Below the pieces are notes generated by a model that ran no database searches, was not told where the DNA came from, and was given only the letters and a program-made list of their open reading frames with translations. 64,000 nt of DNA from Candidatus Thorarchaeota archaeon (lineage in GTDB: Archaea > Asgardarchaeota > Thorarchaeia > Thorarchaeales > Thorarchaeaceae). This document shows positions 23,085 to 26,275 of this stretch, piece after piece. The position numbers and the translations under genes were made by a program. The DNA lies in NCBI GenBank assembly GCA_029855935.1, contig JAGSHN010000025.1:96001-160000 (forward strand), written 5' to 3'. Positions within the stretch are counted from its first letter, which is position 1; the number at the start of each line of letters is the position of its first letter.

Positions 23085-25157
23085 CTATGCGACCTTGCTG
23101 CCCGGAGGAACGCTCTCCACCGTGAGGGGTTTCCACTTCCCAGGCTGGTCTGCATATTCTATCGCAAGAATCATTCCCTGCGACTCAATGCCGGCCAACT
23201 TCTTCGGCTCGAGATTGACGAGAAACAGTGCTGTCAGACCCTCGAGTTCCTCAGGAGCATACTGGTCCGCCAGTCCTGTCACGATCGTCCGTTCCTCGTC
23301 CCCAATGTCAACTCTCATCTTGAGGAGCTTCTTCGTCTTCGGGACCCTCTCGCACTCAAGAATCTTGCCTGCACGAATGTCCATCCGCTTGAACTCGTCA
23401 AATGTCACGGTCTCCATCTGTGACTCACCACCTTCCTCTGTTGTGCCCTCCCCGCGCTCAGCCCGTCTGATACGGGTTTCGATTGTAGACTTGAGTTCGG
23501 CGAGTAGCCTGTCGTCTATCTTGGCTATGACAGGTACTGGGCGCCCCATCCTGTGTCCGATGGGCAGAGGCACGAGAGCCTCCTCAAGTAGAATGGAGTG
23601 TATCTCAGATGACTCGAATCCCAGCTGCTCCCAGATCTTTTCAGCCACGCCCGGCATCATGGGCTCAATGAGGATTGCCAAAGCCTTGACGATTGCAAGT
23701 GCGTCATACAGCACACGTCCGCACGCCGCCTTGTCCTCCTTCACCAGTACCCACGGTGTGTTGGACTGGAAGTACTCGTTGCCGAAGGAGGCCAGCTGCA
23801 TAATATCGTCGGCCACCTTCTTCAACTCGTACTCGTTCACCGCAGCCACGATGCTGTCTATTGTACTCCTGATCCTATCTAACACCTCTTCTGAGATCTC
23901 GCCCTCGGGAACGGCACCAAAGTGCTTGTGAGTGAAGTGAAGTGCCCGGTAGACAAAGTTGCCGAACACTCCCACAAGCTCAGTGTTGACCTTGTCGTGA
24001 AACGTGTCCCACGAGAAGTCGAGGTCACGCGTCTGACCTGTCGTCGCCACCATATAGTACCGGAGATAGTCAGGGTCAAGACCTTTTGACAGGTAGTCAT
24101 CATCTATCCAGACAACGTATCCTCGGCTGCGGCTGAAGTTGTGACCCTCAATCTTGACCATCCCGGATGCTACAATGGCATATGGAAGATTGTATCCACT
24201 ACCCTTCAGCATACTGGGCCAGAAGATGCAGTGATGATACACTATGTCCTGACCAATGTAATGCACGATCTTCCCATCGCCCGGGCGCCAGAACTTCTCC
24301 CACGCATCGGGTTGCTCGGTCTTCTTGGCCCACTCCTCGGTACTGGAGATGTAGTGAATTGGCGCGTCGACCCAGACATACAGCGTCAGACTCTCATCAC
24401 CAGGGAACTTGACCCCCCACTCCAGGTCACGCGTTATGCACCAGTCCTTCAGGCCATCGCGAATCCAACCCAGAGCATAGTTCTTCGCATTCTTTGTGCC
24501 ATCCACACTCTCAAGGTACTCCTTGAGAAAGTCCTCGAACGCGGTCAGCTTGAAGTAGTAGTGACGCCTCCTCACTGGTCGAGTTGGAGAACCGCAGATG
24601 GCACAGCGCGGATTCAGTATCTCGCCCGGTTCGAGGTATCTTCCGCATCCCTGGTCACACTCGTCTCCGCGGGCGTCCGCATGACAGTAGGGACATTCAC
24701 CTCGCACAAACCTGTCAGGGAGGGAACGTCCACAGTTGTCACAGTACGGCGTCTCAAGCTCCTTGGAATAGATGTAGCCGTTCTCCTGCAGAGCACGCAC
24801 TATCTCGTGCGTCCGATGATGGTTCTCGGGATCATCTGTGGTGCCATAGTTGTCGAAGATGATATTCAGTCTCGGAAAGATCTCGACATAGTGTTGATGG
24901 TAGCGTCTGAATAACTCCTCCGGTGTGACACCCTCGCGCTCGGCCGCCGTGACGATCGGGGTCCCGTGGGTGTCAGAACCACAGACGAAGACCACCTCCG
25001 TCTGCATCTTCCTGAGGAGCCTGACGAAGACATCGGCCGGGACATAGGTCCGGAGGTGGCCTATATGCATCGGCCCGCTGGCGTACGGTAGTCCGCAGGT
25101 CACGAGCACGGGTGATTTGGTTGGGTATGTCTTGCGTACATCGTTCACGTTCGTCAC
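23085..25157 (-). CDS. metG: Methionyl-tRNA synthetase with C-terminal tRNA-binding OB domain
   Basis: LPYASGPMHIGH, Zn knuckles, YVWVDAP, FSRSRG, C-terminal Trbp-like domain; GTG at 25157 after gaggag. Confidence 0.97.
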   Translation of the reverse strand: MTNVNDVRKTYPTKSPVLVTCGLPYASGPMHIGHLRTYVPADVFVRLLRKMQTEVVFVCGSDTHGTPIVTAAEREGVTPEELFRRYHQHYVEIFPRLNIIFDNYGTTDDPENHHRTHEIVRALQENGYIYSKELETPYCDNCGRSLPDRFVRGECPYCHADARGDECDQGCGRYLEPGEILNPRCAICGSPTRPVRRRHYYFKLTAFEDFLKEYLESVDGTKNAKNYALGWIRDGLKDWCITRDLEWGVKFPGDESLTLYVWVDAPIHYISSTEEWAKKTEQPDAWEKFWRPGDGKIVHYIGQDIVYHHCIFWPSMLKGSGYNLPYAIVASGMVKIEGHNFSRSRGYVVWIDDDYLSKGLDPDYLRYYMVATTGQTRDLDFSWDTFHDKVNTELVGVFGNFVYRALHFTHKHFGAVPEGEISEEVLDRIRSTIDSIVAAVNEYELKKVADDIMQLASFGNEYFQSNTPWVLVKEDKAACGRVLYDALAIVKALAILIEPMMPGVAEKIWEQLGFESSEIHSILLEEALVPLPIGHRMGRPVPVIAKIDDRLLAELKSTIETRIRRAERGEGTTEEGGESQMETVTFDEFKRMDIRAGKILECERVPKTKKLLKMRVDIGDEERTIVTGLADQYAPEELEGLTALFLVNLEPKKLAGIESQGMILAIEYADQPGKWKPLTVESVPPGSKVA

Positions 25158-25177
25158 ACTCCTCTGTCTGTGATGTT

Positions 25178-25392
25178 GGCGGAAGATGCTCTGTCTGAAC
25201 AATGAGACCCGGAGGCTGATTCGTCGAGACCGAGAAGAGTCAGTTCGACCGTCCGCAACAGGCCGGGCAGGACATCAAGAACGAATATGGTTCGGACTGG
25301 ATGGGCCAGGTCCGGAACCAACCTCAGATCCTGCTCGTCATACTCGGTCTCTCTTCTTCTCGGGTTGTCTTCTGTGAGCGCTTCTTCCCACC
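25178..25392 (-). ncRNA. Candidate structured RNA (metG leader or stand-alone) with box C/D-type kink-turn motifs
   Basis: Five nested helices including a perfect 9-bp gagaccgag/ctcggtctc; AUGACGA...CUGA and CUGA...UUGAUGU face each other; TATA-like TTATAT at ~25433 (minus strand). Confidence 0.55.
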
Positions 25393-25565
25393 TTAGAATC
25401 GACGAAGCTGAGTGCGATGCGACCGGATATAACTGTAACGATGGACTGGCGTTGTTTCAGGCTTGCCGCCACTGGGAGAGAACGTGGCATAGAATGGACC
25501 ATCCAACGCTGAAGTCTTGATGCCACAGATGAGGCTCGCTAGGAGAGCACAGAACCCACATACGC

Positions 25566-26003
25566 TCACACAGGTGGAAACATCAGGACGAGGAACATGG
25601 CAAGTATCCCAAGACCAAGGAACACGCTTGCCGCACGACTCGCCCAATATCTGCGTGCCACAATCTTTGCGTAGAAGTTCGATATGTCAGCCGGGACCTC
25701 AAGCGAACAGACAACAAGCATAGGCTGCAGTATCAGCAGACCAAAGCACAGACTGATCAGTAGAAGGATAGGGGGGACCAGAAAGACGGGCAACCAATAC
25801 CCGACCAGAGTATCAGCAACAGTATGTTTCAGCAACGCAACATAGATTGTGACCAGTCCAGCATCTGTCGGCACAATCACCCTAGAGAAGTCGGTAGCCC
25901 CCCTCAGACCAGACAGGATGAGGTCCGACCTTATCGACAGGAAGAACTCGTCCGTCTTCGACAGCTTCTCGCCAATCAGGGGTTCACGCTCTGCGGATGA
26001 CAT
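25566..26003 (-). CDS. Small 3-TM membrane protein (Pycsar/SLATT effector-like layout)
   Basis: Three hydrophobic segments with S..F.LL.LQP and FY..I..RRY pattern; ATG at 26003. Confidence 0.65.
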   Translation of the reverse strand: MSSAEREPLIGEKLSKTDEFFLSIRSDLILSGLRGATDFSRVIVPTDAGLVTIYVALLKHTVADTLVGYWLPVFLVPPILLLISLCFGLLILQPMLVVCSLEVPADISNFYAKIVARRYWASRAASVFLGLGILAMFLVLMFPPV

Positions 26004-26008
26004 ATTGT

Positions 26009-26275
26009 CTATCCCTCTTCGCAATCGATAAACTCAAGTCTTGCCTCTCTAGGATGTGTTGTGGAAAAACGTACGTACACTGTGAATTCTTTCCCGCAGT
26101 GGCAACATTCTGCAACTGCCTGTCGTTTCACCACCCTCTCCCGAGGACTACCTAATATCCGAACCGTCACGAAGCCCAATACATCTGTTCCCCTTATGTT
26201 CCATCTGCACCGGCAGGTTTCGTGGCAGTAGGGGCATATAACATCCCTTTCAACGTAGTCGGACAACCCGCTCAC
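26009..26275 (-). CDS. Small Zn-finger protein
   Basis: CPYC...CCHC in 88 aa, just upstream of the TM gene. Confidence 0.65.
   Translation of the reverse strand: MSGLSDYVERDVICPYCHETCRCRWNIRGTDVLGFVTVRILGSPRERVVKRQAVAECCHCGKEFTVYVRFSTTHPREARLEFIDCEEG

Follow-up and report, generated by a model that had tools for sequence, protein, structure and literature searches.

Structured leaders that act on aminoacyl-tRNA synthetase genes are best introduced by two described systems. The operator of Escherichia coli thrS, through which ThrRS regulates its own gene, lies directly 5′ of the Shine-Dalgarno sequence (SD); it mimics the anticodon arm of tRNA-Thr, and the protein bound to it competes with the 30S subunit. 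T-box leaders (RF00230) act in cis on synthetase genes, metG in Firmicutes included. For archaea, we know of very few cis-regulatory mRNA structures. One archaeal 5′-UTR element is a kink-turn (K-turn) through which L7Ae is reported to control its own mRNA in other archaea (PMC5539422, PMC6298567). Our literature search found no cis-regulatory mRNA structure described for Asgard archaea or for any archaeal synthetase gene, and no description of a metG leader of Thorarchaeota.

How does the region upstream of a Thorarchaeota metG compare with these systems? We analyzed a 64,000-nt stretch of DNA from a Candidatus Thorarchaeota archaeon, referred to as the window, whose metG upstream region on the minus strand is called the window leader. 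The window's DNA is present in a hydrothermal-vent metagenome. The window leader resembles the thrS operator as a structured synthetase-mRNA leader directly 5′ of the SD, but differs from it in having no conserved anticodon-like (CAU) loop or acceptor mimic. Its conserved part is instead a helix, P1, which closes the leader by joining its 5′ and 3′ ends, together with a bulge rich in A; in addition, the host is an archaeon and the binder is putative. With T-box leaders it shares its place before a synthetase gene and, presumably, an action in cis, whereas the covariance model for RF00230 finds no match, a Stem I specifier, a T-box sequence and a terminator or sequestrator switch are missing, and the interior is not conserved, so that a T-box was rejected.

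The reading that we favor is that the region forms a ~245-nt 5′ untranslated leader of metG, that related structured leaders make up a family found throughout Thorarchaeota, and that P1 would serve as a protein-bound translational operator. We put its probability at roughly one in two.

The metG locus, its promoter and its relatives

In the window, metG (23085–25157, minus strand) encodes a class I methionyl-tRNA synthetase (MetRS) that has an anticodon-binding domain and, at its C terminus, a tRNA_bind domain (Pfam PF09334, 9.8e-150; Anticodon_3; tRNA_bind). About 400 nt of non-coding DNA lie 5′ of it, up to the neighboring same-strand gene, whose end is at 25566. A 152-aa ORF upstream of metG (25566–26024, minus strand) resembles a small membrane protein and matches no Pfam family; the genes in this position vary from genus to genus.

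The sequence-only reading of this DNA, made before the present analysis, had placed a TTATAT box at about 25433 and a transcription start near 25405. The box is found at 25432–25427, within a BRE/TATA promoter (CGTTACAGTTATAT, 25427–25440, minus strand) that is conserved in 62 of 62 metG upstream regions, sampled from 62 genomes that cover all 16 genera of the Thorarchaeota family. Its family consensus, CGTTAsAGTTATAT, is almost invariant, and TTATAT or a variant of it by one or two bases (TTAAAT, TTAAAA) stands between the same flanks in every one of these regions. Archaeal TATA boxes are located about 26–27 nt upstream of the transcription start, and it is about 27 nt past the start of the TATA that conservation between genera and the outermost pairs of P1 begin. 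Judged from this spacing and from the onset of conservation, metG transcription would start about 27 nt after the BRE/TATA, at 25402–25408 (minus strand), which agrees with the earlier estimate, and the predicted transcript would run across the leader.

Besides the promoter, two further elements are common to all 62 upstream regions, a motif at the predicted 5′ end of the RNA and a motif at the SD and start codon. The distance from the TATA to the 5′-end motif is 37–42 nt in all 62 leaders, and that from the TATA to the SD is 176–194 nt in 15 genera versus 237–270 nt in the genus of the window. In a BLASTN search of 40 relatives with the leader only the coding part aligns; the conservation was found by motif anchoring, after six-frame translations of the upstream regions had exposed recurring nucleotide motifs.

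A covariance model (R1), for which leaders of nine genera were used, yields one strong match per Thorarchaeota genome, always adjoining metG; g16 and the greater part of g1 are missed. Its match in the window is a partial one at 25151–25188 (E=0.07), and the copy is not recovered at full length. Two weak second matches were recorded (E 1e-4 to 6e-3). In 26 other Asgard families, represented by 125 genomes, no convincing match to R1 was obtained; weak partial ones in non-Thorarchaeota Asgard genomes (G114:C58:15541-15666, G157:C165:5143-5240 and G176:C42:25730-25843, E 1e-4 to 6e-3) are probably noise. In the sister family, the only sampled genome has a short version of the leader, in which CAUUCUGAGGUGGAAGAAAACUC is followed after ~40 nt by GAGUCUUCCAUG and then GGAGAGUGAU, and in which the 5′ motif is degenerate.

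No such leader precedes metG in Methanosarcina, Methanoregulaceae and Methanocella, which have the closest MetRS outside Thorarchaeota, or in four other Asgard families. The Thorarchaeota MetRS is 57–62% identical to the enzymes of these three methanogen groups and ~40–49% identical to those of other Asgard families, an identity pattern that suggests a transfer between phyla. The leader goes with the Thorarchaeota copy of MetRS only.

The presence of many dispersed copies, as in a MITE, had been named by the sequence-only reading as one way in which the element could turn out to be something else. The window leader is single-copy in the 2.97-Mb assembly, with no further copies beyond the one at metG, and the combination of TATA and 5′ motif likewise occurs once in this genome. 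With one genomic copy here and one strong copy per relative, a MITE or other dispersed repeat was rejected, as was a regulon.

Helix P1 and its pairing

The conserved 5′-end motif of the window (UUCUAAGGUGGGAAGAAGCGCUCACAG, 25372–25398, minus strand) follows a family consensus of UCUAAGGCGGGAA, an A-rich stretch and GCUyCA, and all 62 leaders have the motif. The motif AAGGCGGGAA, which reads AAGGUGGGAA in the window, keeps its place behind the TATA throughout, and AGGCGG is invariant in an alignment of 27 sequences (A2). The 5′ strand of P1 in the window (GGUGG-G-AAGA ... GCUC; GGUGGGAAGAAGCGCUC, 25392–25376, minus strand) pairs with the 3′ strand GAGCAUCUUCCGCC (25191–25178) in both the MFE and the centroid folds. 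This is the outermost helix of the sequence-only reading (25178–25191/25376–25392), which corresponds to the core and inner segment of P1 and is conserved in relatives.

Across the family, P1 is a multi-part, irregular closing helix of 10–30 bp that spans 130–220 nt. Its outermost segment is genus-specific in sequence yet complementary in each case: ACAUUCU/AGAAUGU, UAUCAUU/AAUGAUA, ACAUCUCU/AGAGAUGU, ACAUUCCA/UGGAAUGU, GUUUACAG/CUGUGGAC, UAACCUAC/GUAGGUUA and AAUCCACC/GGUGGAUU. The core consists of a near-invariant GGCGGGA and UCCCGCC-like partners, the equivalents of the 3′ strand in relatives being CUUCCGCC, UCCCGCC or CUGCCUG at 6–43 nt before the SD. A bulge of 4–6 A-rich nucleotides follows on the 5′ strand only, and the inner segment covaries again (CUUCA/UGAAG, AACUC/GAGUU, AACUCAC/GUGAGUU, GCUC/GAGC). 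The helix stops 0–3 nt short of the SD in nine genera and 9–27 nt short of it in the others.

Several measures of pairing bear on P1. Single-sequence partition functions put the pairing of the core GGCGGG with the 70 nt that precede the SD at P>0.5 for 57 of 62 leaders (mean 0.80), and at least ten long-range P1 pairs occur in the MFE folds of 61 of 63 leaders, with a median of 25. When the interior is shuffled as a control, P1 pairing falls from 0.76 in the native leaders to 0.27, a drop seen in 15 of 16 genera (p=5e-5). Motif flanks from which the invariant core was left out find a better partner in their own 3′ region than in the 3′ regions of other genera; this holds for 12 of 16 genera (Wilcoxon p=0.0017). 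In an alignment based on the covariance model, double changes occur at each of the six outer-helix pairs, and the covariation score of the whole structure is 0.151 versus a shuffled mean of 0.110 (0 of 500 shuffles reach 0.151) and at most 0.064 for slid controls. G·U pairs are frequent, with 22 GC and 16 GU in hairpin H1, and U·G to C-G changes are seen within g4; both speak for pairing at the level of RNA rather than for DNA symmetry.

Other tests mark the bounds of this signal. The invariant core of P1 varies on one side of its pairs only and so cannot display covariation. Overall only 54–55% of cells pair in the sequence-based and model-based alignments, and the inner helices of the model are poorly supported; as the model-based alignment is itself fitted to the model, the claim rests on P1, H1 and H3 and not on the inner helices. 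A whole-family MAFFT alignment gave no consensus structure with RNAalifold, because helix registers differ between genera, and pair counts from the plain alignment lend modest support. Leaders of other genera fold more stably than their shuffles (z -4.1 and -4.7). The window leader's own fold, taken alone, is not significant: the comparison with shuffles that the sequence-only reading had proposed finds it no better than shuffled sequence, with z +0.41 for 25160–25440 (123 of 200 shuffles fold as well) and z -1.20 for 25176–25402 (24 of 200). The metG upstream regions of relatives, to which the same reading had pointed for a test of covariation, gave a clearer answer, in that promoter, 5′ motif and P1 are conserved and the outer part of P1 covaries between genera. 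We consider the conserved leader structure very probably real.

What, then, keeps the 5′ strand so constant? It is conserved beyond the needs of pairing, which suggests that its sequence is read by something. The far greater conservation of this strand than of its RNA partner could equally reflect a DNA operator, namely a transcription factor site at +8 to +25 for which RNA pairing would be secondary. Archaeal repressor sites typically lie just downstream of the TATA box, and the motif sits in just such a position. It is, however, not palindromic, and its partners follow even its rare variants, GGCAGG being matched by UGCCU in one leader (L021) and CAGGCGG by CUGCCUG in g4; together with the prediction of P1 for 57 of 62 leaders, compared with 0.27 for the controls, this makes a DNA operator quite improbable.

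A lineage-specific interior

P1 encloses a domain that is wholly replaced between genera. In the window it forms a rod of nested helices with a CCCAU apical loop (25192–25375, minus strand). Here ACCCGAG (25365–25359) pairs with CUCCGGGU (25214–25207), GAGACCGAG (25351–25343) with CUCGGUCUC (25234–25226) in a perfect 9-bp helix, and GAGCAGGA (25336–25329) with UCCUGCCC (25272–25265) at seven of eight positions, and the apical hairpin UGGUUCCGGACCUGG/CCAGUCCGAACCA carries the CCCAU loop. Thus all five nested helices that had been described from the sequence, P1 included, are present on the minus strand, and MFE folds give the nested rod. The window interior, with its inner helices and C/D-like words, could not be aligned with four congeners or with other genera. 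Other genera have a branched interior with three hairpins (GAACACGUGUUC, CCGCC and GGG...CCC), and in the sister family, which retains P1, its bulge and the bulged SD, the interior is down to ~40 nt. The hairpin GAACACGUGUUC in leaders of g3, g4, g7 and g10 (e.g. L037:570-590) includes CACGTG, and the 5′ motif includes GCGGGAAA; we take these to resemble the E-box and E2F DNA sites of eukaryotes. The resemblance is probably coincidental, and the G·U pairs favor a role as RNA.

The sequence-only reading had seen two C/D-type kink-turn pairs in this rod and considered an L7Ae-responsive element or a C/D-like non-coding RNA. The words themselves are where it had put them, AUGACGA, UUGAUGU and two CUGA words standing opposed in the rod, and the reported control of the L7Ae mRNA by a 5′-UTR K-turn in other archaea offers a precedent. 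The leader resembles that element and the box C/D sRNAs as an archaeal 5′-UTR element with C/D-like words, but its conserved region has no K-turn, and the words are confined to the lineage-specific interior of the window. Neither AUGACGA nor UUGAUGU agrees with RUGAUGA; between the D-like CUGA and the stem lie five unpaired bases (CUCUU), a spacing at odds with K-turn geometry; the words are conserved neither in four congeners nor elsewhere, and Rfam holds no C/D family that matches the leader. A box C/D sRNA was rejected on these grounds. A K-turn in P1 was rejected as well: the bulged strand reads GGCGGG-AAA-GA-AGC, and the opposite strand (UGAAG-UCCCGC, GAGUU-UCCGC and others) is continuous and lacks the GA, so that tandem G·A pairs are missing and the conserved bulge is not a K-turn. 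We regard an L7Ae-bound RNA of the C/D-like or kink-turn type as extremely unlikely.

A second idea of the sequence-only reading was a leader that senses methionine, SAM or tRNA-Met, that is, a riboswitch-like functional analogue of the T-box. The gene is indeed that of an aminoacyl-tRNA synthetase, in nine genera a CAU in the outer helix is paired to an AUG immediately 5′ of the SD, and in several genera GGCGG has an alternative partner in an internal CCGCC. A scan with Infernal, which had also been suggested, returned no Rfam match in the whole window at gathering score and nothing relevant for 24900–25900 at E≤10 (cmscan), be it T-box, SAM or any other known family. SAM, methionine and other known riboswitches were rejected for want of an aptamer match and of a junction core conserved between genera; neither junction nor loop is conserved, the interior being genus-specific. 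The CAU/AUG pairing is missing from g4, g5 and g11, and no conserved UGGN-type bulge was seen. Neither was a terminator-like site found when the leader was scanned for intrinsic terminators and attenuators, the U-rich tracts in relatives being short and belonging to the 3′ strand of a purine-rich helix. In the predicted folds the SD is mostly unpaired when P1 forms, and no helix sequesters it. Turnover of the interior and its shrinkage in the sister family make a small-molecule aptamer unlikely and place the function in P1, the bulge and the adjacent SD and start. Nothing speaks for a T-box or a SAM aptamer, and a sensor of any of these ligands appears rather improbable.

Mimicry of tRNA-Met was considered separately, and none is conserved in the 16-genus family. 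CAU occurs in hairpin loops of 6 of 16 genera, where it ranks 14 of 59 trinucleotides and is not enriched; mimicry of the anticodon by the CCCAU loop was rejected, as the loop is not conserved across the family. Acceptor-stem mimicry was rejected too, since the elongator acceptor GCCGCAG differs from P1. The probable initiator tRNA shares with P1 only a 5-bp GCGGG/CCCGC identity, which is within chance.

The same turnover is what one would expect of a constitutive structural leader, in which P1 would mask the mRNA's 5′ terminus and keep the SD open, setting stability and basal translation with no sensing at all. P1 starts a few nucleotides from the predicted 5′ end, it ends beside a single-stranded SD, and the interior is freely replaceable. 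Such a leader leaves unexplained why AGGCGG is invariant and the A-rich bulge conserved while the partner strand drifts, and why the structure is restricted to metG; we hold it to be unlikely.

The initiation site and the proposed role of P1

The SD/start motif of the window, GGAGUGUGA (25154–25162, minus strand), contains a GUG at 25157–25155, and a second GUG follows at 25148–25146; both are in frame with MetRS. Across the family, 57 of 62 leaders carry it as GGAGyGUGA; the remaining five, all from g5 genomes, have GGAGUUGAU or GGAGUGUGG instead. It pairs with the 3′ end of 16S rRNA over 8 bp only if one base is bulged, and its form is nevertheless almost invariant. A different anti-SD was ruled out as the cause, the 16S 3′ end in the window's genome being the standard AUCACCUCCU. 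That rRNA end (L115:1240-1305, same genome, contig C23) has a ~29-nt insertion, AGCCCACAAGGGCACCUUGCGGGCCAUCA, between GGAUGGA and the anti-SD.

Where does translation begin? Of 59 scored genomes, 45 have the GUG inside the SD motif (UUG in one g5 subgroup) in frame with MetRS, and in g9 it is the sole candidate start. In genomes where the frame does not fit, an AUG, UUG or GUG follows nine to eleven bases later, a position that reads CUG in most other genera. The start codon of metG is ambiguous between the GUG embedded in the SD and an NUG nine bases later, and this holds at the same site from L010 to L072.

The frames around this site also raise the question of whether the leader is itself coding, either through a 55-codon ORF at 25154–25321 or through a four-codon mini-ORF, AUG-NNN-GGA-GUG-UGA. 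In several genomes stop-to-stop frames end at the UGA within GGAGUGUGA, and in about nine genera the mini-ORF lies in the 3′ strand of P1, with its UGA overlapping the in-frame embedded GUG as GUGA. All that the translations have in common, however, is a final GV*, which the motif forces; indels are not multiples of three, there is no run of Met codons, and the mini-ORF is missing from g1, g4, g5 and g10 and hence cannot be a general mechanism. A protein-coding leader is very improbable.

We return to P1 as a translational operator. As we picture it, metG transcription would begin ~27 nt past the BRE/TATA, and the 5′ end of the RNA, with UCUAAGGCGGGAA, the A-rich bulge and GCUyCA, would pair with the segment just 5′ of the ribosome-binding site to form P1, from which the variable, lineage-specific domain would hang. 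A sequence-specific binder, most economically MetRS or else another protein, would occupy P1 beside GGAGyGUGA and, much as at thrS, may compete with the 30S subunit or position it, tuning access to the start site. When the 5′ strand is blocked in silico, the predicted accessibility of the SD drops in 15 of 16 genera, which counts weakly for this role because the effect is generic. An action of the leader in cis on metG expression is likely. The identity of the binder is far more tentative, and MetRS is possible at well below even odds. More speculative still is the view that the leader is the first feedback riboregulator of an aminoacyl-tRNA synthetase in archaea, and in the Asgard lineage, in which a P1 that is bound by MetRS or senses tRNA-Met would gate an unusual start at the bulged-SD GUG or at the CUG nine bases later.

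Of the earlier proposals for this region, that of an undescribed leader cotranscribed with metG from the TTATAT box has held up: it matches no Rfam family, it has no dispersed copies, and it shows conservation and covariation, with the transcript itself predicted from the promoter. The alternative of an L7Ae-responsive or C/D-like RNA was not borne out. The metG leader of Thorarchaeota is a new RNA family of a general type, the cis-regulatory leader of a synthetase gene, that is already known and of which none had been described in this lineage.

Its interest lies in its conservation across a whole family of 16 genera, with clear covariation, on a gene essential for translation, and in a group, the Asgard archaea, that comprises the closest prokaryotic relatives of eukaryotes. 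In most genera the leader is ~160 nt long, small enough for probing and binding experiments in vitro although the organisms are uncultured. For Thorarchaeota it adds a new RNA family to genome annotation and offers a handle on how translation starts at a non-standard site.
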